DNA of 12,037 nucleotides from Candidatus Thorarchaeota archaeon (lineage in GTDB: Archaea; Asgardarchaeota; Thorarchaeia; Thorarchaeales; Thorarchaeaceae), in the NCBI GenBank assembly GCA_029858305.1, contig JAOUFI010000069.1, positions 1-12,037 of the forward strand. The letters run 5' to 3'. A program made the translations under genes and the position numbers. Below the pieces are notes generated by a model. That model saw only the letters and a list, made by a program, of their open reading frames with translations, had not been told where the DNA came from and did no database searches. Shown piece after piece: positions 1-12,037 of the stretch. Every line of letters begins with the position of its first letter. The stretch's first letter is position 1.

Positions 1-528
1 GCACTGAATTTTAGATCGAACTCCACGGAGCATGAGTCTACATATCAATATCATTGGGACGCTCCTGGTACTCGAACAGATGTATTTGGAATACATATTG
101 ATTGGAATGAGCAGTATGGAGAAGCTTATAGTTATGGAACTGGAGTACTCACTGAATTATTGCTTGATAGAGGTATTGAAGACTTTTGCATCCAATGGAC
201 CGAGCTCGAACCCTTCGCAAACAATACTTGGACGCTTCGAATAGATTTCTTTGTAGGTATGATATTTGATGGAGAACTCTCGCTGCGAGGAGATAATCAA
301 TCAGCACATGTTGATGATTTTAGAACTACTGATACTCAATTTTCATCCGATCTTTTAGAGGGATTAGATGCTCTTGGTATCGAAGGACTTGAGATCTGGA
401 TGAATATCACGCTTAGAATAGCAGCTGGAGTCCTTAGAAATTGTTTTTGGGAGATATCGAATGATTTTGAAATAATGAACGACATAGAGATGCTCGCAAC
501 AGATATCGTGTTTGGGATGATCTCCTAA
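1..528 (+). CDS. Hypothetical protein, 5'-truncated by the window edge
   Basis: Frame +1 is open from base 1 (ALNFRSNSTEHESTYQYHWDAPG...) and runs through the listed 160..528 ORF to TAA at 526-528. The protein is acidic and I recognise no family. Confidence 0.75.
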   Translation, partial: ALNFRSNSTEHESTYQYHWDAPGTRTDVFGIHIDWNEQYGEAYSYGTGVLTELLLDRGIEDFCIQWTELEPFANNTWTLRIDFFVGMIFDGELSLRGDNQSAHVDDFRTTDTQFSSDLLEGLDALGIEGLEIWMNITLRIAAGVLRNCFWEISNDFEIMNDIEMLATDIVFGMIS

Positions 529-535
529 AAAGCAA

Positions 536-596
536 ACACGAAAACCCCGGTATCGGAGCGACCAAGAGCAGCGCCTAGGTACCGTTGAAGTAAAAG
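536..596 (+). repeat. Direct repeat copy 1 (61 bp), left boundary of the arsenosugar-type module
   Basis: ACACGAAAACCCCGGTATCGGAGCGACCAAGAGCAGCGCCTAGGTACCGTTGAAGTAAAAG aligns without gaps to 4053-4113 at 53/61 identity (manual count). Confidence 0.95.
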
Positions 597-675
597 CGTT
601 CCTCCTCTGTTCTCTCATGGGATTCTGGATAACAATCTAGTGTATATTAGAAGGACTTAGGTTCATCGGATAATT

Positions 676-1383
676 CTAACGTTCCAATTTCCTAGATGAA
701 TAATAGGCATTATAAATTTGGAAAGGGGATCCTCCCAAGGCATACCAAATTCGACAAAGCAAAAATTTCCCAGTATACCCCATTAATCCATGTTTTCGAT
801 AATTTTCAGCACTCGTTACAACCTTTTCTTTGAGTAAAACTACTTTGCCATATTTGCGCATACATTGTGCTAATCGCACATCTTCGAAGAGCGGAACTTC
901 AAGCACTGACAAACAACGTTTTAGAATATGAGAACGAACAAACATGGCACGGTCACCATAGAGTTCTCCTGATATTCGAATCCATTGATTAATCATCCAA
1001 GTACCCAAATCCAAGTACGGTTTAGGCGTGTCATAGGTCATGGAAAACCCTCCGCCAACCACCTGTGGGTCCTCCAATGCCGTAAGAATTGCTTGATCCC
1101 ATCCAATGGGAGGAATTGTATCAGAGTGCAATAACATAGTGGTTGTACCTGTGATGTTAGCGATTCCCTGAAGAAATGCAAACCCACGACCTTTTCGAGG
1201 AGCAACTACTACTAATTCATTGGAGCCTTGGGGTACAATATGATTGGCAAGTTTCGGATTGTTTATCACTACAATAAGTTGTGTAGGTCCGGTTGCCGAG
1301 GATAATGCCTTCCTGATTTGTGGTATTTTGTGATTTGTAGTATGTATGGGGGTAATGACAGAGATCAAGGGTGAACCTACCAT
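676..1383 (-). CDS. GT2-fold glycosyltransferase, TIGR04283-like (rSAM-associated / arsenosugar biosynthesis glycosyltransferase)
   Basis: Motifs LISVITP, LLHSDT (family LHADT), VGGGF, YGDRAMFV (YGDQ), PLFEDV (PLMEDV) and VVTSA. It lies near ArsS-like and TIGR04282-like genes. I placed the start at ATG 1383, which has a GTGGTG SD 6 nt upstream and is where the domain begins. The track start at 1512 overlaps the divergent gene. Confidence 0.82.
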   Translation of the reverse strand: MVGSPLISVITPIHTTNHKIPQIRKALSSATGPTQLIVVINNPKLANHIVPQGSNELVVVAPRKGRGFAFLQGIANITGTTTMLLHSDTIPPIGWDQAILTALEDPQVVGGGFSMTYDTPKPYLDLGTWMINQWIRISGELYGDRAMFVRSHILKRCLSVLEVPLFEDVRLAQCMRKYGKVVLLKEKVVTSAENYRKHGLMGYTGKFLLCRIWYALGGSPFQIYNAYYSSRKLER

Positions 1384-1505
1384 AACGTGCACCACATTAT
1401 ATAATTCAGACGGTGTTTTATCTCGAAAATGAATAAACATATTATTATCGCTACTATTCGTTGCTGTCAGGTTGATTTTGTCCATAAAAGAAAGGGGATA
1501 ATATT

Positions 1506-2261
1506 TTGACAAACGATACTACGCCTGATACAAGCATAACTGCATCGAATAAATATCAGATTGGTCCGGGATTAGGACTCTTGTTAATGGGAATAATGTA
1601 TCTAGTCTTTTGGATATTACCTTACACTATTGAATCCTTCATCGAGGATCCCCGATGGTCCCATAATTGGGTTTATTCATTGATAATTATTACAATAGGT
1701 GCGTCGTTCTACCAAAAAACCGTGGTTAGCAGAACTGTTGCAGTCATTCAAGCACTATTGATGCCACTCACCGCGAGTGGAGCGTTTAATACAACTTTGA
1801 TGACCTTAGTGGCGCTGTCAATCCTATCAGTATGGATTATCGTTGTATTGATTGAACATAGAAACAATTCCCCCCTTCTTAATAACCGAATAGCACAACG
1901 TACTCAGAATTGGGTGATAATGCATTCATTAATTGTCTGTTGGATGCTTATTGCACATATGGGATTGGTGTTTTTCTTTGGCCGGTTACCATTTGAATCT
2001 CAACTTGACACAATTGGTACAGGTCTAGGGGAAAGTCTTGGTTTCTTAATCAATCTTCCAATTGAACGCTATGACCTAGTTACATACGTGTTTGACATCA
2101 ACCTGATCATTCTAGCGGTCCTGTTTGGTTACGAGCAATTCAAGGTCGGATACAACCTAAAGAATAAACCTTGGCCGAAAATCAGTTTTAGATTTCTCTG
2201 GATCACAGTTACACTAGGCCTAGTACTACTCCCTTTCAGCCTCCAAGGTATCATCCCCTAA
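1506..2261 (+). CDS. Uncharacterised polytopic membrane protein (about 7 TM helices)
   Basis: 251-aa ORF with many hydrophobic segments. The TTG start is preceded by AAGGGG. Polar residues sit in or near the membrane (WSHNW, MHSLIVCWMLIAH, FDIN, YEQ). Confidence 0.8.
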   Translation: MTNDTTPDTSITASNKYQIGPGLGLLLMGIMYLVFWILPYTIESFIEDPRWSHNWVYSLIIITIGASFYQKTVVSRTVAVIQALLMPLTASGAFNTTLMTLVALSILSVWIIVVLIEHRNNSPLLNNRIAQRTQNWVIMHSLIVCWMLIAHMGLVFFFGRLPFESQLDTIGTGLGESLGFLINLPIERYDLVTYVFDINLIILAVLFGYEQFKVGYNLKNKPWPKISFRFLWITVTLGLVLLPFSLQGIIP

Positions 2262-2292
2262 AATAATCAATCCCATAGAGTCTTGCTACCAA

Positions 2293-2997
2293 TTACGAGA
2301 AAAGAATCTGCAAAAGCTTGGAATGACTGCGAAGATATTTCATAGTATGTAGAATCTTTGATGGCTGCAACTGACATGTTTCATAGAATTTCTGTAGATC
2401 ACTCTTGGTGTCGATATCCGCCCATTCCGGTAAAACATGGACCTGACTGGTTACTGATTCAATTCGTGATAGGGTTTCTCGAAACACCGTCGCTGTGCTC
2501 CAAGGTATGTCTTCAAAAACCTTGGAAATGAAGAGATCATGCGAAAATCCGATTAAATAATAGCCTCCATCAGATGCTGGTCCGATTACCACCTTATGTG
2601 TTTGGAGGCTAGATACTGCTTTCTGTAGAATCTCAATGGGAAGATCCGGGCTGTCACTTGCAAGAGCAATTACCTGTTGATACTCCTTTTTATACATCGT
2701 TGCAAAGCCATTTTGGAGACGTTGCCCAAGATCTACACCCTCTTGACCAAAAAACTGATGCGATGGTCCAAGCCATTGTGCAAACCGCTCCTGAGATGCC
2801 GGCGGATACACTGCAATGTGATAGGGAATATCAAGAGATTGCACAGTTTGGAGTGTGTCTTGAATAAATGCGCGATATAGGTCAATTGCAGCTTCTTCTC
2901 CAACAGATTGTGCGAGGCGCTCCTTGACCATTCCTAGCTCAGGATACTTCACCATGATGAATATCCCAGAACGAAATGGATTCCTAGTATTTTCCAT
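2293..2997 (-). CDS. TIGR04282/DUF2064-type glycosyltransferase-like protein (CofC-like; arsenosugar biosynthesis associated)
   Basis: Motifs VKYPELGMVKERL, QEGVDLGQRL, SDSPDLP, VIGPASDGGYYLIG, IPWST and DIDTKSDL. It lies directly downstream of the rSAM gene. ATG 2997 follows AAGGTG; the track's GTG 3003 abuts and overlaps that SD. Confidence 0.9.
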   Translation of the reverse strand: MENTRNPFRSGIFIMVKYPELGMVKERLAQSVGEEAAIDLYRAFIQDTLQTVQSLDIPYHIAVYPPASQERFAQWLGPSHQFFGQEGVDLGQRLQNGFATMYKKEYQQVIALASDSPDLPIEILQKAVSSLQTHKVVIGPASDGGYYLIGFSHDLFISKVFEDIPWSTATVFRETLSRIESVTSQVHVLPEWADIDTKSDLQKFYETCQLQPSKILHTMKYLRSHSKLLQILFS

Positions 2998-3023
2998 ATT
3001 CACACCTTATTCTCTCTATAACA

Positions 3024-3983
3024 TTACTCGAGGGCGCCTGCACATGAAGATCCATATCCAGCGGTGCAACCAAAACAGTGAGATCCAGTGACTATCTCGC
3101 GGTTTATGTGAGAAACGGAATCAAATTGATGGATATATTTTGGCGTAGTGATAACAGGAAGTTTAAGGGCGAAATTAAAATCGCAATCATAGATCAATCC
3201 ATCCCATCCAATACATATCTGATGGCGGCACATCAACTTCTCCAAGGTATCAGGATTGAAAGTGTTTTCGAGTAGTTGCTGATAGTGTACAACTTGCTGA
3301 TTAGCTTCCAACAATTGCTTAAATCGTCCAATCGGCATATTCGTGATGGTTAGCAGACGGTTAAAACGAATTCCCCATTCTGATGACAGTATTTCTTTGT
3401 AAGTGTCTTCTAACTCGGATTGGTTAGGAGGCAGAAAAGCGCCTTCCGGATTAAAGACCAGATCTAATTCTAACTCAGGATTTACTCCGTACTCAAGCGA
3501 GTTGAGTATTCCTAAGATGTGAAGACTCTTCTTGAATACGCCGTCTCCTCGTACCTGGTCCACATCAGCTTCTATGTAACATGGCAAAGATCCTACTAGT
3601 CGAATCCGAAGGTCTCTATACAGTTCCATCAGCCCTCTTAACTCAGGATCTAATAACACTGTGAGGTTTGTACGAACTTGAACTTTGTAAGATTTATCAA
3701 CCAATGCTTTAAGAAATCGAGGAAGGGAGGGGTTCAATTCAGGTGCCCCACCTGTGATATCTATGAGTTCTGGATTAACACACTCAGCGATCTTAAGGAC
3801 TTCTTCCATTAGCTCCCACTTCATAATATCCATGCTTGTGGGTGTGGCTTGTACATGACAATGGGTACAAAGATGATTGCATCGATTTCCCACATTTACC
3901 TGTAGCGTCCTATGAGTTAATCCTGAAAGTTTGGACCCTGTTTTGCCAAGTATGTGCTGAGTAAATGTATTCATTCTTTGCAC
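3024..3983 (-). CDS. arsS: Radical SAM / Cys-rich domain protein, TIGR04167/DUF3641 family (arsenosugar biosynthesis radical SAM, ArsS-like)
   Basis: TLQVNVGNRCNHLCTHCHV (CxxxCxxC), DITGGAPELNP, VRTNLT, SLPCY, LMCR...WDGLIYDCDFN and the C-terminal HCFGCTAGYGSSCAGAL signature. The start may be GTG 3983 or ATG 3974. Confidence 0.9.
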   Translation of the reverse strand: MQRMNTFTQHILGKTGSKLSGLTHRTLQVNVGNRCNHLCTHCHVQATPTSMDIMKWELMEEVLKIAECVNPELIDITGGAPELNPSLPRFLKALVDKSYKVQVRTNLTVLLDPELRGLMELYRDLRIRLVGSLPCYIEADVDQVRGDGVFKKSLHILGILNSLEYGVNPELELDLVFNPEGAFLPPNQSELEDTYKEILSSEWGIRFNRLLTITNMPIGRFKQLLEANQQVVHYQQLLENTFNPDTLEKLMCRHQICIGWDGLIYDCDFNFALKLPVITTPKYIHQFDSVSHINREIVTGSHCFGCTAGYGSSCAGALE

Positions 3984-4052
3984 TATATCTGATTGAAGAG
4001 TGCAAAGGAAATTAAAACTCTGTCTAATTCTCAGTTTCTAGCAAACAGTAAT

Positions 4053-4113
4053 ACACGGAAACCCGGGTATCGGAGCAACCAAGAGCAGTGCATATGTACA
4101 GCTGAAGTAAAAG
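4053..4113 (+). repeat. Direct repeat copy 2 (61 bp), right boundary of the arsenosugar-type module
   Basis: ACACGGAAACCCGGGTATCGGAGCAACCAAGAGCAGTGCATATGTACAGCTGAAGTAAAAG matches 536-596 with 8 mismatches. An AGCAAACA motif also occurs at the 5' side of both copies (531-538 and 4040-4047). Confidence 0.95.
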
Positions 4114-4201
4114 AAGAAGTATTATCTTTCTTTTTCGAAAGGGTGTTCAAGAGCCTCCCTGATTACAAAGAACGAGGCATGCATGTCCTAATCAACTGAC
4201 C

Positions 4202-4220
4202 AACATATGTTTATTATATC
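4202..4220 (+). promoter_or_regulatory. Candidate archaeal TATA box (TTTATTATA) with adjacent AACATATGTT palindrome
   Basis: TTTATTATA at 4210-4218 lies about 35 nt upstream of ATG 4251. A 10-bp palindrome occupies 4202-4211. Confidence 0.4.
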
Positions 4221-4250
4221 ATATTATTGTCTATCATAGCGTGAACCGTC

Positions 4251-4931
4251 ATGTGTTTAAAAAAACGGACTGTGTATATAGCAGCCATCATCGCGCTAAC
4301 AATGCTAACAGGTTTTGCCAATATTCCATCCGCTGCTGCGACAGTAGCAGAAGATATACAACTTGTTTATGACTATGATTCACAGATTCTAACGGTGAAC
4401 ATCTCACACTATGTTGCAAACACAAAGACTCACTATATTGAAGATATTGAGATTCATAAGAATGGTATCTCCATTCTGAACAGGTCCTATGCGAATCAAT
4501 CCTATAATTGGGGGATGTACGACATGTTCAATGTTCCAGCTGCTGTAGATGATAATCTTACAATTACTGGAATCTGCAATAAGGGATATTCACTCACTAG
4601 ATGGTTGATTGTTACATCTGCCATTGCAACAAATACCCCGCCTTCCAGTACAACATCAACCACAGAGCCAACCAATGGTGTCGATGTACCTGGAACATCG
4701 CTCGGCACAGGTCCAGCAATCGCGGCCGGAGCAGTGGTCATCATTTTCTTCGTCTTATTCTTTGCATGGCTCAAGCCTGAATATGTTCCGGACGTATTCA
4801 AGCAGCTAGGAGCACGAATAAGGAATGGAGTCACCTGGTTGGGAGAAAAGCTGAGAGACATGCTATCATGGTTAAAAGCTGGGCTCAGCAGCCTTGTTCA
4901 GCAAGGTGCAGCCAAGTTCGCTTCAAAATGA
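4251..4931 (+). CDS. Type I membrane/surface protein with superoxide reductase/desulfoferrodoxin-like beta domain
   Basis: N-terminal signal peptide (KKR plus hydrophobic stretch ending SAAA). Beta-rich domain LTVNISH...THYIEDIEI...ICNKG. Thr/Ser/Pro linker, TM helix AIAAGAVVIIFFVLFFAWL and an amphipathic cytoplasmic tail. Confidence 0.7.
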   Translation: MCLKKRTVYIAAIIALTMLTGFANIPSAAATVAEDIQLVYDYDSQILTVNISHYVANTKTHYIEDIEIHKNGISILNRSYANQSYNWGMYDMFNVPAAVDDNLTITGICNKGYSLTRWLIVTSAIATNTPPSSTTSTTEPTNGVDVPGTSLGTGPAIAAGAVVIIFFVLFFAWLKPEYVPDVFKQLGARIRNGVTWLGEKLRDMLSWLKAGLSSLVQQGAAKFASK

Positions 4932-4932
4932 T

Positions 4933-4989
4933 CTACTCTTTGTTTCCCTAGAATCATTCAGAAGTTGATTCTAAGAGCAAACAGAGTGG
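4933..4989. other. Imperfect 24-bp-arm inverted repeat just after the stop codon (possible 3'-UTR hairpin or terminator)
   Basis: Core TAGAATCA (4949-4956) / TGATTCTA (4966-4973) is a perfect inverted pair. Arms 4933-4956 and 4966-4989 give 17/24 Watson-Crick pairs plus two G-U pairs. Confidence 0.45.
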
Positions 4990-5085
4990 CGTTGAATCCC
5001 TAGAAAAACTCTCAAAAACTCCGAGAGAGTGAGTTATCATTAAGAATGGTGGTCATCCACACCGACTTATTATGAGGTGTTAAAA

Positions 5086-5874
5086 GTGACCGAAGTGTCT
5101 ATTGAGCTTGCAAAACCGATTGATGCTGAAAGATTAGCGGACATCTCGAAGAGAGCCTTTGATTCAGATGTTGAGGTCGGTGCTCCTGGAGAGGGAGGAC
5201 CGCCAGGATACGATTCTCCCGACCATCAAAGACGGATGATAGAAAATTCATCAAGTGATTATCTGAAGATCATGTATGATGGAAAGATTGTGGGGGGCAC
5301 CACAGCCTACAGAATCAGTGATACGCATCATGAGATTTTCAATGTCTTCATTGATCCAGACTATCATCGAAAAGGAATCGGAAGAGAGTCCTTTCGGCTG
5401 ATAATGGAGAGATATCCACAGGCAAAGAGATGGACTCTGGATACCCCTGAATGGAATACTAGAACAAAGGCATACTATGAGCACTTAGGTTTCAAGCAAT
5501 ATGGAATCTTCCGATGGGTTCCTACTTTTGATTTACGGGCATACGAGCTAGTCTTAGATTCAGAGTATAAGATTGAAACAACCAGAATTGCAGATGTAGC
5601 TGATGATAACCAGAGATACATCATCGAAGGTACTGTTGATAGCATATCTGAATCCCGAGAGGTGTTTTCAAAGAAGGAGAACAAGTATCATACTGTGGCA
5701 GAGGCTGTAGTGACCGATGATTCGGGATCAATGAAACTCGTACTATGGAATGAGATGATTCGACAGGTCAAGCAGAACGAACGAATTCGAGTTGAAACAG
5801 CATATGTTTCTACATTCAAAGGCGAGATGCAGCTTAATGTAAGCAAATTCGGGCGGATAGCTATTCTCCAGTAA
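5086..5874 (+). CDS. GNAT N-acetyltransferase fused to a C-terminal SSB/RPA-like OB-fold
   Basis: GNAT motifs GPPGYDS, FIDPDYHRKGIG and WNTRTKAYYEHLGF. The C-terminal ~100 aa (VAEAVVTDDSGSMKLVLWNE...VETAYVSTFKGEMQLNVSKFG) match the single-OB archaeal SSB pattern. The GAGGTG SD at 5074-5079 favours GTG 5086 as the start. Confidence 0.88.
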   Translation: MTEVSIELAKPIDAERLADISKRAFDSDVEVGAPGEGGPPGYDSPDHQRRMIENSSSDYLKIMYDGKIVGGTTAYRISDTHHEIFNVFIDPDYHRKGIGRESFRLIMERYPQAKRWTLDTPEWNTRTKAYYEHLGFKQYGIFRWVPTFDLRAYELVLDSEYKIETTRIADVADDNQRYIIEGTVDSISESREVFSKKENKYHTVAEAVVTDDSGSMKLVLWNEMIRQVKQNERIRVETAYVSTFKGEMQLNVSKFGRIAILQ

Positions 5875-5889
5875 TCCCCGGATTATTCG

Positions 5890-6219
5890 CTATCCAATCC
5901 TTACACATCCACGAATCTTCTGTGTGTCATCAAGAAGGCGAATTCTCGTTTCAGAAACCAATTGCTCAAAATCATCAAGAGGGATCGCAGAAGTGATACC
6001 ATCAGTCAGCATTCGGCTGTAACGTTGAGTGATGAATTCCTGTAACTCTCTAAAAGACCTAAGAGTTGCTCGAAGGTTTGAGTCGTCATCACAATCAAGG
6101 ATTTCAACTCTAGCATCAATCCCATTCTGTCTCAGTTTTTCAACCTCCTTAAGGGCAACTCGAATCTCATCTAGACCTGTCAACTCTGCCTTTGTGAGGT
6201 ACAAATCCTGATTTGGCAC
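5890..6219 (-). CDS. Hypothetical protein (109 aa)
   Basis: GTG start preceded by AGGATGA. Composition is charged and helical. It packs tightly with its neighbours. No family recognised. Confidence 0.7.
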   Translation of the reverse strand: MPNQDLYLTKAELTGLDEIRVALKEVEKLRQNGIDARVEILDCDDDSNLRATLRSFRELQEFITQRYSRMLTDGITSAIPLDDFEQLVSETRIRLLDDTQKIRGCVRIG

Positions 6220-6240
6220 GGTATCATCCTGATGTATTGA

Positions 6241-6717
6241 TCAAGTATGGCTATCTCTAGAAACCTGATAATCCATTATCTCGGGTGTTCCGAGCTGTGA
6301 TACTGGATTCTTTTCTTCTTTAGTAAGTAGTTTCATTGAGACATTCAAATCTTCAAAGAATAGAAAACCAAAGAGAAGATCACCAGATACAACAACTAGG
6401 ACCCATATTGATGCTTGTGCAATAATGAAATAGTACAGACCCATTACAAAGACCCATGTCTTCTCAAAGATGGCGATCTTGACAAGTCCATGGTTATCAG
6501 TTTGGCTTTTACTGATGAAGTAAAATCCAAGACCAAAGGCAAAGACAAGACCAAAGAAGGAGTCGAACCATAGTAGAGTTGGTGGAGGATTCATGGGACC
6601 TGCCAATGAGAAGTACGCAAGATCAATTCTTGGCAAAACAAGAAAACTAATCGACAGTACCCAGTTCCAGACAGCTGCTATAGTGTACATGTATTTGTGG
6701 TAAGTTTGTCGTTCCAA
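6241..6717 (-). CDS. Small 4-TM membrane protein of unknown function
   Basis: Four hydrophobic segments (AAVWNWVLSISFLVL; FFGLVFAFGLGFYFI; IAIFEKTWVFVMGLYYFII; WVLVVVSGDLLFGFLFF). The GGGTGA SD favours TTG 6717 over GTG 6726. Confidence 0.78.
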   Translation of the reverse strand: MERQTYHKYMYTIAAVWNWVLSISFLVLPRIDLAYFSLAGPMNPPPTLLWFDSFFGLVFAFGLGFYFISKSQTDNHGLVKIAIFEKTWVFVMGLYYFIIAQASIWVLVVVSGDLLFGFLFFEDLNVSMKLLTKEEKNPVSQLGTPEIMDYQVSRDSHT

Positions 6718-6809
6718 AGACTTCACCCTAGAGAGAGAATCCGTGACAATCCATCATATATCTACTAGGGAGAAACAGTGAGGGCAAAACCGATTGCAAA
6801 GTAGTAGAG

Positions 6810-7379
6810 CTATTCTACTGGGAGAACATCAGCAAGGTATACTGTTTCATGCTCCCGGGCAAGATTATCCATCATTATTGTATCGTATCTCTTCGCCCCG
6901 ATTATACGTGACTCTCGGCGTCGCCCGATTTCCTTGAATCCGACTTTCTTGTAACAGGCGAGAGCTCTCTTGTTGAATGAGTATGTACCAAGATTGACAC
7001 TATTCATGTTCAAAATGTTAAATGCATACTCAAGAAGTAGATGAAGAGCCTCGGTTCCGAAGCCTCGATCCCAATGGGTCTTTTCTCCGATTACAATACC
7101 TAGTCTACAACTTCGGTTGACCTCATCCAAAGAGCCTAGAAAGCATCGGCCTATGAGATAATCTGACTCGATTTCAAGAATGTCAAACCCGTGCATCTTT
7201 TCTTTAATAATTGAGGCGATGTTCTCCTCTGTCGTTTCAATTGTTGTTGGCGTGTAGGGTTCACTCCCCAATGGAATTCCAACCTCTAGATCGTTATCCC
7301 ATCTTGCCCAGCTCTCTGCTGAATCATTGCTTACGGGTGAAAGATAGCAGATTCTACCAATTAGTTTCTTGAAATACAT
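6810..7379 (-). CDS. GNAT N-acetyltransferase, RimJ/RimL (Acetyltransf_3) family
   Basis: LGIVIGEKTHWDRGFGTEALHLLLEYAFNILNMNSVNLGTYSFNKRALACYKKVGFKEIGRRRE is typical of RimJ/RimL/SpeG-like GNATs. Confidence 0.9.
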   Translation of the reverse strand: MYFKKLIGRICYLSPVSNDSAESWARWDNDLEVGIPLGSEPYTPTTIETTEENIASIIKEKMHGFDILEIESDYLIGRCFLGSLDEVNRSCRLGIVIGEKTHWDRGFGTEALHLLLEYAFNILNMNSVNLGTYSFNKRALACYKKVGFKEIGRRRESRIIGAKRYDTIMMDNLAREHETVYLADVLPVE

Positions 7380-7546
7380 TGAACGTTCAGTCTCCCAGAC
7401 TTTCGCAACCCGACATTGTTATCAAGTATTTTATCTGAGCACTACAGAATCACATGTTTATTCGTCGCGGTTTCCATGTTTTTCCGAGGCTCTTCCAAAT
7501 CTGGATTAATGATATTCTTCAACATATGTGATACAAATAGAATGAA

Positions 7547-7570
7547 AGAAGGGACCCAAAGATCCCTTCT
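7547..7570 (-). terminator. Hairpin followed by a U-rich tract downstream of the M14 peptidase gene
   Basis: Minus strand AGAAGGGATC-TTTG-GGTCCCTTCT forms a 10-bp stem including one G-U pair. It is followed by TTCATTCTATTT and sits about 20 nt after the stop codon. Confidence 0.6.
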
Positions 7571-7589
7571 CAATGGTAGATGGAGAGCT

Positions 7590-9281
7590 TTACCGTTTTT
7601 TCATGTACACAAAGACTACAACAGCGACCAACACCACACCGACACTGATACCAATTAAGACGAGATCAAGACCTATGGTGGTTCCCGCAGTGAGTTGGAA
7701 TTGGGTGTATCCAGTGTAGTTGTTTCCTATCAGGATGGTGTATTGAGAACCTCCTAAGTCATCAGAAAGAATGAATGAAGGATAATCAGTAAGGGTTTGG
7801 TCAGCCCCAATAGCAATAGCAGTATCAAGAACGACACTGTTGTTGTCAAGGACCTTCATTGATTCCTTACTTCCTAACCGTGGACTCAGACATTGCATCG
7901 AAGCAGTTAGTGTCACACTATCGCCAGTATTGACACCTCCCGAGATACCTGTAATCTCAATATCAACACGAGGTGTCATCTCCAGAAAGTACTCAAAGGC
8001 TGGAGCGAGTTCGAGCCAGAGAGTCTGGATATACTCAGGAGTGGGATTGAAGTAGCCATAGATGCCTTCCCATTCGCGAATCATGTGTGTGTTGTTGTTC
8101 TCTATGATAACATAGGCTTCTTCAACATTTACAGATTCATTGGTATAGACCTCAAAAGTTATTGGAACGGTGCAGCCCTGCTCATAATACATCCACTCTC
8201 CCCAACCTCCTGCTGTTGCTGATTCGATTTGACGATATTCACTAGCTGGATAGCCGATTCCTTGATTGAACCCTGATGGGAGAATATCACGGTAATCACT
8301 CGCAATCTGGTAGTAGAGAAGTGGCTCTACCCAATCAAAGGATGTGTCTTGTACAAAGAAGGTAGCATTTGTGCCTGAGTGGAGGGAGTATGCCATGGCG
8401 AACTTGTGTTGCTGTGCGAAATCCCTGAATGCCTGAGTTTCAGGCTCTGAGAAGGGAGCAGATCCGCGATACTCCTGTGTTGTAACATCTGTATTTCCAA
8501 TGTCCCAAAGGACAGGATAGTTACGGTTCAGATCCACAAGTCCAACTTCATCCTCATTGTATAAGGTATCATTGTCATTATCAATACCCTCCCAGTACTC
8601 CCAGTCGTAGTCATAAATATGGGGAACTTCTGTCGGATAGGCTTTTTCGTAAACAAGGAAATTAGAAATCCATCCGTCACCGTCCGTATCCTCTGCATCA
8701 TCCTCTCCAAATAACCCATCACCGTCGTTGTCGTATGGTCTCAGATTCTTTCTGAGCCAATGATTACCTTCGTTGATGACAATCTCGAGTGCGTCTGGGT
8801 TCAAAGTGGGAATGACATAGATTTCCTGTGTATCTACATACTCTGTTAGAACTGTGTCAGTACCATAGCCATTGAGTAGCCATAGAATAAATCGAAGCGC
8901 AAGCTCCACTGTAATCTGTTCACGTCCATGATGCTGAGCGACAATCAGTGTCTTTGCCTTTTGGACCGTATTCAACTCATTTGTGATTCGAAGGCTGGTG
9001 ATATTTCTGCCTTCAAAGCTCTCACCAATTATCTCTATGTCGACAAGTTCAGGAACAAGACTAAGGATATTTTCAATCTCTTCGTCAAGTTTTGCAGGAT
9101 CATGAAACTGATCTTCATAGATGAGAGATAGCAGATCCCATGTTCGTGTGACAGAAGGGAATACGACTTTTTCAGCCACAGGAACGTAATTCTCATTCTG
9201 CGCTGCCATTACCTCGGTAGGGAGTAGAGTAGCAGAGAGAAGGAGAACTAGAAAGATTATAAAATTTCGTGATAGCCTGAT
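7590..9281 (-). CDS. Secreted, C-terminally membrane-anchored M14 zinc carboxypeptidase with DxDxDG Ca-binding insert
   Basis: Motifs HGRE (HxxE), RKN, DLNRNY, SLHSG and TFEV (catalytic Glu). C-terminal TM helix followed by KKR. The frame stays open 24 codons upstream of ATG 9209 and encodes a signal peptide starting at ATC 9281 behind a GAGGTGA SD. The start position is inferred. Confidence 0.9.
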   Translation of the reverse strand: MRLSRNFIIFLVLLLSATLLPTEVMAAQNENYVPVAEKVVFPSVTRTWDLLSLIYEDQFHDPAKLDEEIENILSLVPELVDIEIIGESFEGRNITSLRITNELNTVQKAKTLIVAQHHGREQITVELALRFILWLLNGYGTDTVLTEYVDTQEIYVIPTLNPDALEIVINEGNHWLRKNLRPYDNDGDGLFGEDDAEDTDGDGWISNFLVYEKAYPTEVPHIYDYDWEYWEGIDNDNDTLYNEDEVGLVDLNRNYPVLWDIGNTDVTTQEYRGSAPFSEPETQAFRDFAQQHKFAMAYSLHSGTNATFFVQDTSFDWVEPLLYYQIASDYRDILPSGFNQGIGYPASEYRQIESATAGGWGEWMYYEQGCTVPITFEVYTNESVNVEEAYVIIENNNTHMIREWEGIYGYFNPTPEYIQTLWLELAPAFEYFLEMTPRVDIEITGISGGVNTGDSVTLTASMQCLSPRLGSKESMKVLDNNSVVLDTAIAIGADQTLTDYPSFILSDDLGGSQYTILIGNNYTGYTQFQLTAGTTIGLDLVLIGISVGVVLVAVVVFVYMKKR

Positions 9282-9431
9282 ATTAGTTCACCTCATATTC
9301 ACCGGATAGCAGAGTATCAAAGGGCGTGCCTGTCTTCTGCAAATAAAGGAAAGAAGCTTCAATCTACATAATAAGCAGTTAGATTAACGTAAGCATTTAT
9401 CTGTTGAAGAGTGTAAGCCATTACGAACGGC

Positions 9432-9500
9432 TTATAGTTATAACCTATTGTAATATATTATAAAATAAGATTTCTGGCTGTGCTGGATGTAATATTAACC
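9432..9500. promoter_or_regulatory. AT-rich divergent promoter region with palindromic TATA-like motifs
   Basis: GTTATAAC (9437-9444), TAATATATTA (9451-9460) and TAATATTA (9490-9497) lie between the divergent M14 and thioredoxin-like genes. Confidence 0.4.
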
Positions 9501-9568
9501 TAAAAATTGACTTGTGCATGGTTCACTGATGTCTATGAGATGAGCAAATGAAAGCCGAGGTAGAGCAA

Positions 9569-9883
9569 ATGTCAGAAACACAATCCACAACAACGCCTTG
9601 TGGAAAGTGTGGGTGTATTATCATGTACAAAGGAGAGATCTGCATTTTTTGTGATGCGGTTATCGAAATCCTACAAGAAGCCCTGTCTAGCTTCGGAGTT
9701 CCAAGAAGTGCCATCCGCTCAGTAGATATAGATTCGGAGGACACCTGTGGATGCAGTATTGATGATATTCAGATGCTGCCCACTATCAAAATATGCGATG
9801 TGAAGCTCACTGGAATACCAGATGAACAAATAGTGAATGATGCAGTAATTAGAGCTATCATGAAAGATTGCTTCTGTGAGTAA
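9569..9883 (+). CDS. Small Cys-rich thioredoxin/glutaredoxin-fold protein
   Basis: CIFC (CxxC) follows a beta strand (IIMYKGE). VDID and LPTIKI (cis-Pro motif) are present, then GIPD plus a C-terminal helix. 10 Cys in total. The GAGGT SD favours ATG 9569. Confidence 0.75.
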   Translation: MSETQSTTTPCGKCGCIIMYKGEICIFCDAVIEILQEALSSFGVPRSAIRSVDIDSEDTCGCSIDDIQMLPTIKICDVKLTGIPDEQIVNDAVIRAIMKDCFCE

Positions 9884-9889
9884 TACTCT

Positions 9890-10402
9890 CTATTCTTTCC
9901 AAACATATGTGAAATCGCAACAGTCATCGCCATTCATCAGGGTCTTGGTGCGAACTAACTCAATTTTTGGATGATAGATACTTGCAGAAACAAAATCGTT
10001 GTCGCACATGGTTAATTGGCCTAGCTCAGCTGCGCCTAACTCCTGCATTGTCTTTGCCCAGATGCATTCGGTCACCCTGTATGTCACTCTGTCGGGCTTA
10101 TCATCAGTAGTCTGGCTGGTGTGGGTATGTTTCACATGAGGCCCATTCCACATCTCATCCTGAACCTTCTTAAAGTCCTCAAAGGTCTCAATCTGAATTC
10201 CTTTATTTTTTATAAAACGCTCCATGCTTCTAACTGTTCGTTTCTTTGTCCAGTCACGGAGTAATTTGTGCGCCTTTTCTTTGCCTAAGGTTGTTTCCAG
10301 CTCTTTTTGGAGAGCAACTTCTCCTTCCATCGTGTCCTTGATATATTGACTATAGGTAAGTTCGAATTTCGCATCGAACTTGTGCGTTTCTGAATCAGTC
10401 AT
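9890..10402 (-). CDS. L-2-amino-thiazoline-4-carboxylic acid hydrolase (ATC_hydrolase) family protein
   Basis: Signature VTECIWAK...LGAAELG...CDNDF...IELVRTKTLMNGDDCCDF. A GAGGT SD lies upstream of the ATG. Confidence 0.85.
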   Translation of the reverse strand: MTDSETHKFDAKFELTYSQYIKDTMEGEVALQKELETTLGKEKAHKLLRDWTKKRTVRSMERFIKNKGIQIETFEDFKKVQDEMWNGPHVKHTHTSQTTDDKPDRVTYRVTECIWAKTMQELGAAELGQLTMCDNDFVSASIYHPKIELVRTKTLMNGDDCCDFTYVWKE

Positions 10403-10539
10403 ATGGATACCTCGTTCTTGTGTGAAGTGCCGTTCCTCCTTATTGAGCCTATATTAACTGACTTTTCAACGCAGGTTGGTCAAACGGAAGGGCTTGACTA
10501 TATGGCGGAAATCATCAAGATACTCTCAAATATACACGC

Positions 10540-10995
10540 CTAGAAATCAAGTTGAATTGTTTCCCATCGGACGCGTCCAGATTCAACTGCTTCCTTAATC
10601 TTCCTCTCAGTCTTGTTCAGAGTTGCATTCCCTGTCTTAATATCAGCAAGAATGACTGTGATAGGGTCATCAGAGTTATTGTCTTTGACAGCAGTGTAGC
10701 CATCAAAGATGAGATAGTCGATGGGAGCACCAATAAAACGAGCATCGGATGGATCATACTTGAATATATCTGAAAGAAGTGGAACCATATGCTCTGCTAT
10801 CTTCCCCTTCAGGACATAGCGACTTCTATCCGCAGCATCCCTACGAACAGAAGATTCCTGTTCAGCCCAGGTCTTTTCAAACTCCTTAGTCACAAGCGAG
10901 ATTCGATGTCGTAGCTGCATCTTCATGATAAAGAAGATACAAACCGCTACAATCAGACCGATTGCAAGTCCAATCAGAGTGTCCTCGAAAGCCAT
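10540..10995 (-). CDS. Holliday junction resolvase-like PD-(D/E)xK endonuclease (Endonuc_Holl family) with N-terminal TM anchor
   Basis: SRYVLKGKIAEHMVP, DARFIGAPIDYLIFDG, DIKTG...L...E.KIKEAVESGRVRW, plus an N-terminal hydrophobic helix. ATG 10995 is preferred over 11019. Confidence 0.85.
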   Translation of the reverse strand: MAFEDTLIGLAIGLIVAVCIFFIMKMQLRHRISLVTKEFEKTWAEQESSVRRDAADRSRYVLKGKIAEHMVPLLSDIFKYDPSDARFIGAPIDYLIFDGYTAVKDNNSDDPITVILADIKTGNATLNKTERKIKEAVESGRVRWETIQLDF

Positions 10996-11160
10996 ACGTA
11001 CTGGTATATACAATTGCATATATTCTCAGGTAATAGGGGGATATTCGCTGGGGGATATGTAAAATGAAAGAGAAAGAAGACATTACATGACAGTAAATTG
11101 TCATCGAATAATAAGATGATGCTTAAGTGTGAGTAATGCCTTGGGAAAACGGTGGATAGA

Positions 11161-12036
11161 ATGTCGGAGCATATCCTTGACCTCTTGAAAACGCTCTCTG
11201 CAACTCCTGGACCGGTGGGACGGGAGGATTTGGTTCAGGAGATAATGAAGAGGGAGCTTGGCAACTACTGTGAACATGTAGACATAGATAAGATTGGCAA
11301 TCTCATTGCTACACTGGAGGGAAGCAAGAAGCACTATACAATCGTTGCTCATGCAGATGAAGTTGGGTTTCTTGTGAGTGGGATTGATGATAGAGGGTTT
11401 ATTCATGCAAAGTGGAATACACAGGGTCATATGCCCGATCTTCGATTGCTTCCCGGACAATGGGTCTTAATCATGACAGAGAGAGGTCTGATTCCGGGAT
11501 GTTTTGCGGTCAAGACTGGACATATCGCTGGTGAAGAGGGTAAGAATCGAATCCCTACGTATGAAGAAGTGTTCCTTGACATCGGTTTCAACTCTCGAGA
11601 TGAGGTCGAAGAATATGGTATTCATATTGGAGACCCGATTATCTATGCTGCCCCGGTTGAGAGCGTTGGACACAACCTATGTGGTAAATCAATGGATGAT
11701 AGGATTGGTCTTGTCATCATGATATTGCTAGCACAGGAATTATCTAAGATTCCAATGGCTAAACGCCCAAAAATCACCTTTGTATCAACTGTTATGGAGG
11801 AACTTGGAGCCAGGGGAGCTGCAGCAATTGCGAGAGATCTCGATGTCGAGGGGGTTCTCATCCTTGATATTGGACTTGCGGATGATTATCCGGGGACAAA
11901 GGGAGAAGCTGGTGTTGCCTTGGGGAAGGGACCTGTAATAGTTATCAAAGATAATGCAATGCATTACTCTCACAAGTTGATACAGGAAATTCTAGATACA
12001 GCTGGGAAGGAAGAGATACCAGTTCAACGTGCGGTT
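11161..12036 (+). CDS. M42 family (TET-like) metalloaminopeptidase, 3'-truncated by the window edge
   Basis: Absent from the ORF track because there is no stop in the window. Translation: MSEHILDLLKTLSATPGPVGRED...DKIGNLIA...AHADEVG...FLDIG...GKSMDDRIG...TVMEELGARGA...ILDIG...LGKGP. The metal-ligand motifs H-x-D, DDR and EE are present. GGTGGA SD upstream. Confidence 0.93.
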   Translation, partial: MSEHILDLLKTLSATPGPVGREDLVQEIMKRELGNYCEHVDIDKIGNLIATLEGSKKHYTIVAHADEVGFLVSGIDDRGFIHAKWNTQGHMPDLRLLPGQWVLIMTERGLIPGCFAVKTGHIAGEEGKNRIPTYEEVFLDIGFNSRDEVEEYGIHIGDPIIYAAPVESVGHNLCGKSMDDRIGLVIMILLAQELSKIPMAKRPKITFVSTVMEELGARGAAAIARDLDVEGVLILDIGLADDYPGTKGEAGVALGKGPVIVIKDNAMHYSHKLIQEILDTAGKEEIPVQRAV

Positions 12037-12037
12037 T

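Follow-up and report, generated by a model that had tools for sequence, protein, structure and literature searches.

In TmcA/NAT10 and in the GNAT toxins (TacT/AtaT), a GNAT domain is directed to a substrate that is borne by nucleic acid. TmcA/NAT10 use a different GNAT family from the one described here, together with a helicase-type ATPase and a dedicated tRNA-binding domain, and the toxins come with antitoxin partners. Little of the protein and RNA acetylation in archaea has been mapped, and we know of no acetyltransferase that carries its own reader of single-stranded nucleic acid of the type found in single-stranded DNA (ssDNA)-binding proteins (SSBs). Here we describe a candidate for such a protein, encoded at 5086-5874 on the plus strand of a 12,037-nucleotide (nt) stretch of Candidatus Thorarchaeota archaeon DNA (contig JAOUFI010000069.1 of assembly GCA_029858305.1, positions 1 to 12,037; hereafter the window). 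It joins an N-terminal GNAT domain to a C-terminal SSB-type OB fold, and the fusion is conserved in Asgard archaea and Bathyarchaeia.

SsoSSB (PDB 1o7i, 2mna and 7wcg) and human SSB1/SOSS-B1 (5d8f, 4oww) consist of a single OB fold of family PF21473, as found in the fusion. In contrast to these proteins, the fusion has no flexible C-terminal tail, does not stand alone and carries an N-terminal GNAT domain. RimI and the N-alpha-acetyltransferases (5isv, 2cnm, 6wqb; TIGR01575) have the GNAT fold and the cofactor motifs in common with the fusion, whereas the RimI-type enzymes lack its GGPPGYDS loop in the alignments examined and have no nucleic-acid-binding domain. The GGPPGYDS, WTLDTPxWNxRT and FYEKLGF motifs of the fusion recur in stand-alone bacterial GNATs, which are without the OB fold. 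A TmcA/NAT10-type enzyme was considered and rejected, since the Pfam scan of the fusion protein (12 families reported at E <= 1) returned neither the dedicated GNAT nor a helicase-type ATPase or dedicated tRNA-binding domain, and the protein has only 262 residues. An earlier sequence-only reading of the window had known of no characterised protein with this architecture and, in agreement, we found no description of a GNAT-SSB/OB fusion or of its motif string in the literature. The accessible part of a 2026 preprint on Asgard histone acetyltransferases mentions neither an SSB nor an OB fold.

A single intact gene encodes the GNAT-OB fusion

The gene at 5086-5874 (+) is a single intact unit of 262 codons plus a stop codon (5872-5874), and its open reading frame (ORF) runs without interruption from 5077/5086 to 5874. 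A Shine-Dalgarno-like GAGGTG, recognised by resemblance to the consensus only, lies at 5075-5080 (+), 5 nt 5' of the GTG at 5086. We took this GTG as the start because of the upstream box and because the resulting 262 amino acids (aa) are the commonest length among the relatives (38/121). The databases name the fusion genes only as 'GNAT family N-acetyltransferase'. The ORF, the Pfam and NCBIfam matches and an AlphaFold 2 model together define the whole fusion gene (5086-5874). The full-length model has a mean predicted local distance difference test score (pLDDT) of 93.9 and a predicted template modelling score (pTM) of 0.87, which suggests that the arrangement of the two domains is fixed.

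The GNAT domain comprises residues 4-156 (5095-5553), as judged by matches to Acetyltransf_1, _7 and _10 above their cut-offs and by secondary structure. It is followed by a short conserved linker (residues 157-163; 5554-5574), in which D158 is conserved in at least 90% of sequences, and by the tail-less SSB-type OB fold (residues 164-262; 5575-5871), delimited by PF21473, by NF005049 (residues 164-258) and by a model of the domain. The NCBIfam SSB models align from residue 164, that is, from base 5575. The sequence-only reading had described one uninterrupted ORF with a GNAT domain and, from about 5575, an OB fold, and the ORF, Pfam and NCBIfam analyses bear this out.

The GNAT domain belongs to a distinct subfamily and is probably active

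Acetyltransf_1 (PF00583) matched residues 48-136 with an E-value of 3.7e-14 and a score of 53.4 bits against a cut-off of 20.7, and PF13508 and PF13673 likewise scored above their Pfam cut-offs. Both motifs picked out by the sequence-only reading, HRKGIG (residues 94-99; 5365-5382) and N..YYEHLGF (residues 124-136), were found in this domain. HRKGIG is the acetyl-CoA pyrophosphate-binding loop, which we match to the pattern Q/R-x-x-G-x-G/A, the defining motif of this loop in GNATs. Within the loop, G97 and I98 are conserved in at least 90% of a 40-sequence alignment (A1), and a further alignment (A2) shows no variation at G97 and at least 90% conservation at G99. H or Q opens the loop in 12 of 14 aligned sequences, and the H/Q-x-x-G-x-G pattern is also present in stand-alone GNAT relatives. 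The motif-B helix, NTRTKAYYEHLGF, occupies 5455-5493 and contains the invariant residues N124, R126, Y131 and E132. By likeness to other GNATs, Y131 is a candidate catalytic residue. Since the cofactor loop and the motif-B helix with Tyr131 are intact, the GNAT domain of the fusion is probably enzymatically active.

Other residues invariant in the 40 sequences are S21, F25, D28, G32, G37, G38, P39, Y42, G70, F88, P91, W116, L118, T120, P121, W123 and G140. Several of these fall in the GGPPGYDS loop (residues 37-44; 5194-5217), which lies between helices 1 and 2 and is a signature of the subfamily; from its position in the GNAT fold, we take this loop to function in acceptor binding. The nearest characterised relatives in sequence are RimI (PDB 5isv, E 1.4e-6; TIGR01575, E 5.2e-9) and the N-terminal acetyltransferase 6wqb, which matched the GNAT subfamily profile at E 6e-11. 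The TIGR01575 score of 36.3 bits lies below the equivalog cut-off of 86.4, and all characterised sequence relatives fell below family cut-offs. No solved GNAT structure with a GGPPGYDS loop was found, and the best profile match, 3fnc, is without it. Judged by its sequence, the domain is a distinct, uncharacterised GNAT subfamily marked by the GGPPGYDS loop and WTLDTPxWNxRT.

A Foldseek search with the full model returned only GNATs among the top matches (about 50 listed), with target-normalised template modelling scores (TMt) mostly of 0.63-0.80 and one of 0.58, over about 165-197 columns; the best of them lie at 0.66-0.80. These neighbours include 8osp, ArsN, PA4794, RimI, PaiA, SpeG, MccE (3r96) and Naa60. 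All of the listed matches are single-domain GNATs, and no two-domain structural analogue was among them. Stand-alone members of the subfamily are 150-165 aa long and 32-44% identical to the fusion's GNAT domain; most of those with named sources are from bacteria (e.g. Gaiellaceae and Acidobacteriota), and matches covering the GNAT part only also occur in two Asgard genomes (G136, G196).

GNAT domains of the GGPPGYDS type are also found fused to a SWIM zinc finger, to pentapeptide repeats and to a transglutaminase-like domain, with one representative of each. A further representative has an unassigned C-terminal extension, and its cluster mates are named rubredoxin (Bacillota). These alternative fusions (P0141, P0191, P0200 and P0236 of the representative library) are leads only.

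The OB fold retains the SsoSSB contact positions

The C-terminal domain matched Ssb-like_OB (PF21473) over residues 188-259 (E 2.8e-11, 43.9 bits against a cut-off of 24). The NCBIfam SSB equivalogs NF005048-NF005051 gave a best score of 68.1 bits, below the cut-off of 188. When the protein was compared with PDB sequences using HMMER, residues 185-259 aligned with residues 22-94 of SsoSSB (2mna/1o7i/7wcg) at E 1.2e-10, reproducing the hand alignment by which the sequence-only reading had placed the OB fold on the Sulfolobus SSB pattern. In this alignment, W221 (codon 5746-5748), Y240 (5803-5805) and F244 (5815-5817) fall on SsoSSB residues 56, 75 and 79, and R191 and V193 correspond to residues 28 and 30. 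We take these five SsoSSB residues to be the ssDNA-contacting ones of the study behind PDB 2mna.

All five positions are well conserved. W221 is invariant in the 40 sequences and in 30 of 30 fusion OBs. Y240 is conserved in at least 90% of the 40 sequences, and the 30 fusion OBs have Y (26), F (2), H (1) or A (1) at this position. At position 244, 101 of 115 relatives have F and 12 have Y; of the fusion OBs, 19 have Y and 11 have F. Among the 115 relatives, R191 is R in 99 and K in 13, and V193 is retained in 109. Conservation of these five positions extends to the tail-less mini-OBs described below (46 rows) and to tailed SSBs (10 rows). The retention of aromatic residues at the stacking positions, with tyrosine in place of the middle tryptophan, had been noted from the sequence and is thus a conserved feature. 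Tyr also occupies the middle aromatic position of the tailed SSB encoded by this genome, and this substitution is therefore the norm of the lineage. A helix motif, I225-x-Q227, is conserved in the fusions (28/30 and 26/30, respectively).

Folded alone with a 30-sequence alignment, the OB domain was modelled with a pLDDT of 93.9. Its best PDB match was SsoSSB (1o7i_B; E 1.5e-6, query-normalised template modelling score (TMq) 0.84, root-mean-square deviation 1.8 A over 99 columns), and this superposition agrees with the Sulfolobus-type assignment. The next matches were human SSB1 with ssDNA, P. abyssi RPA and other archaeal RPA OB folds. A sub-threshold match to tRNA_anti-codon (PF01336; 26.1 bits against a cut-off of 27) was also observed. 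In the model the last OB strand spans residues 247-261 and the protein ends one residue later, at 262, leaving no SSB tail. The absence of an acidic tail had been pointed out earlier, and the SSBs of the same genome do have tails. The genome encodes three such proteins: two canonical SSBs, whose tails are acidic and RGG-rich, and an SSB-like protein of 166 aa. In the two canonical SSBs (L001, L002) an acidic stretch is followed by a long Gly/Arg-rich (RGG-like) C-terminal tail, unlike the tail of SsoSSB, which we take to be short and acidic.

The fusion is conserved across Asgard archaea and Bathyarchaeia

A word-indexed search found 209 proteins at E <= 1e-3. Among the 120 matches listed, almost all are 254-325 aa long with both domains, and the record names include Thor-, Odin-, Sif- and Hodarchaeota. 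Of 121 proteins retrieved, 115 are 250-330 aa long and align end to end. Truncated relatives are few (P0059, 178 aa; P0093, 164 aa; P0130, 159 aa and named 'partial'), and no systematic split form was seen among the relatives retrieved. A scan of one genome per species gave 141 relatives, the best 80 of which come from Thor-, Hermod-, Hod-, Heimdall- and Promethearchaeota and from Bathyarchaeota/Bathyarchaeia, nearly all covering residues 1-261. A profile search of 1.84 billion representatives returned about 14 full-length fusion clusters, and three fusion clusters, with 56, 104 and 56 members, are present in the ESM Atlas. At the locus itself, the domain junction is bridged by a 683-nt contig from a second study's run (X2 record 6), which spans 4945-5627.

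In a tree of 78 fusion proteins rooted on nine stand-alone GNATs, clade A comprises 17 rows, including the window protein, and is nearly all Thorarchaeota. Clade B comprises 61 rows, with 20 from Bathyarchaeota and 19 from Thorarchaeota in addition to Prometh-, Hod-, Heimdall- and Hermodarchaeota. The deepest splits have support values of only 65-84. The window's genome holds both kinds; its second copy, on contig C151, shows 40% identity in a gap-free alignment of 259 residues. This clade-B paralogue (L004, 1288-2148, minus strand) lies 36 nt downstream of a same-strand ORF of 278 aa (2185-3021) whose end looks GNAT-like by eye, a pairing that was not seen elsewhere.

Within the window's phylum, 38 of 201 sampled genomes have a match at E <= 1e-20, two of them (G136, G196) to the GNAT part only. 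Matches were found in 13/14 genomes of the same genus, in 21/43 of the same family and in 9/19 and 5/10 of two other families. The gene is therefore common but optional, and the fusion is an optional accessory function rather than part of the core replication machinery.

Two contigs with fusion genes are labelled bacterial (L034 and L036, from Patescibacteria and Krumholzibacteriaceae bins). L034 nests among Bathyarchaeia sequences, which suggests that its label is a mis-binning. Identical fusion proteins also occur under Thorarchaeota and Heimdallarchaeota titles (L056, L057), probably reflecting inconsistent labelling or binning.

The OB domain groups with tail-less mini-OB proteins of Bathyarchaeia

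A Bathyarchaeia fusion was used as the query against 151 sampled Bathyarchaeia genomes. Matches were found in 96 genomes, comprising 18 full-length fusions, one cut by a contig end and 77 to the OB part only. The OB-only matches cover residues about 165-265 of the query, with 39-61% identity, and correspond to stand-alone, tail-less PF21473 proteins of about 96-107 codons, which we call mini-OBs. They are 44-61% identical to the OB domain of a Bathyarchaeia fusion and 35-43% identical to that of the window protein, of which they are the closest stand-alone kin, with the same contact residues and likewise no tail.

An OB tree was built from 93 rows over 104 columns, with 12 tailed SSBs, 30 fusion OBs, 46 mini-OBs and five proteins of 206-237 aa. 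A branch with support 99 sets the 12 tailed SSBs (Thor-, Bathy-, Heimdall- and Promethearchaeota) apart from the rest. All 30 fusion OBs cluster together (support 97) amid the mini-OBs and the five longer proteins, and the Bathyarchaeia fusions branch first within it. The deeper order is tentative because the tree rests on 104 columns and a quick search. In this sequence comparison the fusion OB groups with the Bathyarchaeia mini-OBs and is not descended from the tailed SSBs of its host. We infer that a GGPPGYDS-type GNAT was fused once with a mini-OB, possibly in Bathyarchaeia, and that the fusion then spread to Asgard lineages. The protein holds an SSB-type OB fold but is not an SSB, being tail-less, below the SSB cut-off and on a separate branch.

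The genomic context of the mini-OBs was examined by scanning 89 immediate neighbours in 45 loci (L086-L092 and L098-L137, all Bathyarchaeia genomes). A small TRAM-domain gene directly adjoins the mini-OB in 22 of the 45 loci, often on both sides. Leucyl-tRNA synthetase lies upstream in five loci, a LigD 3'-phosphoesterase gene lies beside the mini-OB in four, and other neighbours encode a Yip1-domain membrane protein, FEN1 and UvrB. A GNAT gene is a neighbour in one locus (L086); it is of a Sat-like subfamily, with an hhalign probability of 74% to the subfamily of the fusion. Compared with the fusion, the mini-OBs have no enzyme domain, and their TRAM flanks are missing at the fusion loci. No published description of mini-OB proteins or of a mini-OB/TRAM module was found.

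In the accessible part of one paper, archaeal stand-alone TRAM proteins are described as cold-shock RNA chaperones (PMC5572242). The portion available of another reports that the OB core of a canonical crenarchaeal SSB melts double-stranded RNA and complements the loss of Csp proteins in E. coli, and that the SSB gene is dispensable (PMC10684826). The mini-OB and TRAM genes may form an RNA/ssDNA chaperone module. From the mini-OB kinship and the TRAM neighbours, RNA would be as likely a ligand of the fusion OB as ssDNA, and the domain may read RNA no less than ssDNA. As far as the available portions of these papers go, a widespread tail-less mini-OB lineage beside TRAM genes would extend the finding of an archaeal SSB core acting on RNA to uncultured lineages.

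The five Bathyarchaeia proteins of 206-237 aa (L094:2974-3663, L095:2950-3591, L096:2980-3675, L097:2695-3315 and L097:11990-12703) combine an N-terminal part with a C-terminal mini-OB-type domain and represent a second kind of fusion. Their N-terminal part gave no Pfam match and no Atlas match at 0.9 or above.

No conserved partner gene was found in 77 fusion loci

To describe the neighbourhoods of the fusion gene, ORFs within 8 kb were clustered over 77 loci and Pfam was run on the representatives of 25 recurrent clusters. No conserved operon partner was found in the 77 loci, and no cluster occurred in more than eight. Within two genes of the fusion, the commonest cluster was a PEMT/ICMT-like methyltransferase (8/77), and an MFS transporter occurred in 6/77. 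Other recurrent clusters include regulators, ABC transporters, EutA, aldo-keto reductase and creatininase. None of the recurrent clusters was antitoxin-like, and PADLOC gave no defence-system match for the fusion protein or four neighbours. A toxin-antitoxin GNAT of the TacT/AtaT type was rejected on these two grounds.

Possible activity of the fusion and alternative explanations

We tentatively favour the view that the fusion is an acetyltransferase tethered to single-stranded nucleic acid and that its acceptor is most likely a protein. The OB fold would anchor the enzyme to a single strand of RNA or DNA where one is exposed, and the GNAT domain would then move an acetyl group from acetyl-CoA to an amino group held close by, most likely the N-terminal or a lysine amine of a protein on the same strand. 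That the fusion binds nucleic acid, that it transfers acetyl groups and what it acetylates are each inferred from the domains and their relatives. The sequence-only reading had proposed an acetyltransferase recruited to ssDNA or RNA; of this reading, the architecture, the intact cofactor loop, the stacking residues and the missing tail are supported, whereas no link to replication, repair or chromatin emerged, the neighbourhoods in the 77 loci being unconserved and the family optional (38/201 genomes). Several points weigh against a tethered enzyme with a protein acceptor. Because bacterial stand-alone GNATs of 32-44% identity share the putative acceptor loop, the acceptor may be a small group found universally, and not a protein bound to nucleic acid in archaea. 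PaiA, SpeG, ArsN and MccE reach scores close to that of RimI, similarity in GNAT sequence or fold is a poor predictor of substrate, and the gene neighbourhoods point to no functional partner. A related and rather unlikely proposal is a nucleic-acid-guided or -gated archaeal acetyltransferase, in which the mini-OB would read single-stranded RNA (or ssDNA) and the GNAT domain would acetylate either an RNA-borne amine, for example on aminoacyl-tRNA, or proteins of the RNA-chaperone or SSB type. If this were true, acetyl-CoA status would be coupled to RNA folding, translation and cold or stress responses in Asgard archaea and Bathyarchaeia.

There is a modest chance that the acceptor is located on the nucleic acid itself, with the OB fold holding a single-stranded RNA end or loop, such as the 3' end of an aminoacyl-tRNA, and the acetyl group passing to an aminoacyl alpha-amine, an aminoacyl-nucleotide or an exocyclic base amine. 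This would be consistent with the sub-threshold PF01336 match, with the mini-OB kin beside TRAM and leucyl-tRNA synthetase genes (22/45 and 5/45) and with the presence among the structural neighbours of MccE (3r96), which acetylates an aminoacyl-nucleotide; an acceptor loop common to bacterial and archaeal members also fits a universal chemical acceptor. However, no RNA cytidine acetyltransferase GNAT or helicase is among the 12 Pfam families, the OB sequence is nearer to SSB/RPA OB folds than to anticodon-binding ones, and the fusion has no conserved antitoxin-like partner or PADLOC match, unlike the aminoacyl-tRNA-acetylating GNAT toxins. We see only a small chance that the fusion acetylates a small molecule (a polyamine, an amino acid or an antibiotic-like amine) and that the OB fold is an allosteric sensor of single strands or a concentrator at sites where polyamines bind. 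No polyamine or antibiotic genes are conserved beside the fusion in the 77 loci, and its retention across two archaeal phyla with intact stacking residues argues that contact with nucleic acid is integral. Set against this are the stand-alone subfamily relatives widespread in bacteria, the presence of PaiA, SpeG and ArsN among the structural and profile neighbours, and a fusion family that is optional, paralogous and flanked by varied metabolic genes.

We also assign a low probability to an OB fold that does not bind nucleic acid and serves as a protein-contact or substrate-recognition module, or as a structural cap for the GNAT domain. OB folds are versatile, I225-x-Q227 is strongly conserved in the fusions, the pTM of the model would suggest tight packing on the GNAT domain, and Y240 is replaced by H or A in 2/30 fusion OBs. 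Yet the five SsoSSB contact positions are kept in both the fusions and bona fide SSBs, exposed aromatic residues would not be expected to last without a ligand, and the best structural matches are ssDNA-bound OB folds. Finally, it is very improbable that the fusion arose artefactually, through loss of a stop codon, through a frameshift or through chimeric assembly. Apart from the few truncated relatives, the observation that would fit an artefact is the L086 Bathyarchaeia genome, in which a GNAT gene is immediately followed by a mini-OB gene. That GNAT, however, is of the different, Sat-like subfamily and is the sole GNAT neighbour in the 45 mini-OB loci, and the linker of the fusion is conserved. 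The sequence-only reading had itself raised a lost stop codon or an assembly artefact, with separate genes in close relatives, and no systematic split of this kind was seen among the relatives retrieved. We rejected an artefact or split gene on the basis of the 115/121 full-length relatives, the occurrence in 141 genomes of two phyla, the paralogue in the same genome and the bridged junction.

As a conserved Asgard/Bathyarchaeia family, the fusion offers a small, soluble and easily expressed protein with which to probe whether acetylation is targeted or switched by exposed RNA or ssDNA. It also allows the question of the substrate to be asked.

Other features of the window

No tRNA or Rfam elements were found in the window. 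The fusion gene is surrounded by unannotated ORFs and by genes for an M14 carboxypeptidase, an ATC hydrolase, a Holliday-junction-resolvase-like nuclease and an M42 peptidase. Another GNAT, of a type different from that of the fusion (Acetyltransf_3, E 1.4e-18), is encoded at 6810-7379 on the minus strand, about 1 kb downstream of the fusion. A 70-nt direct repeat is present at 527-596 and 4043-4113, with the two copies 85-87% identical and no other copy in the genome. The first copy begins at the stop codon of an ORF that ends at 528. The repeats bracket a four-gene block (676-3983) that encodes a GT2-like protein, an ORF of unknown function, a DUF2064 protein and a radical SAM protein with DUF3641.

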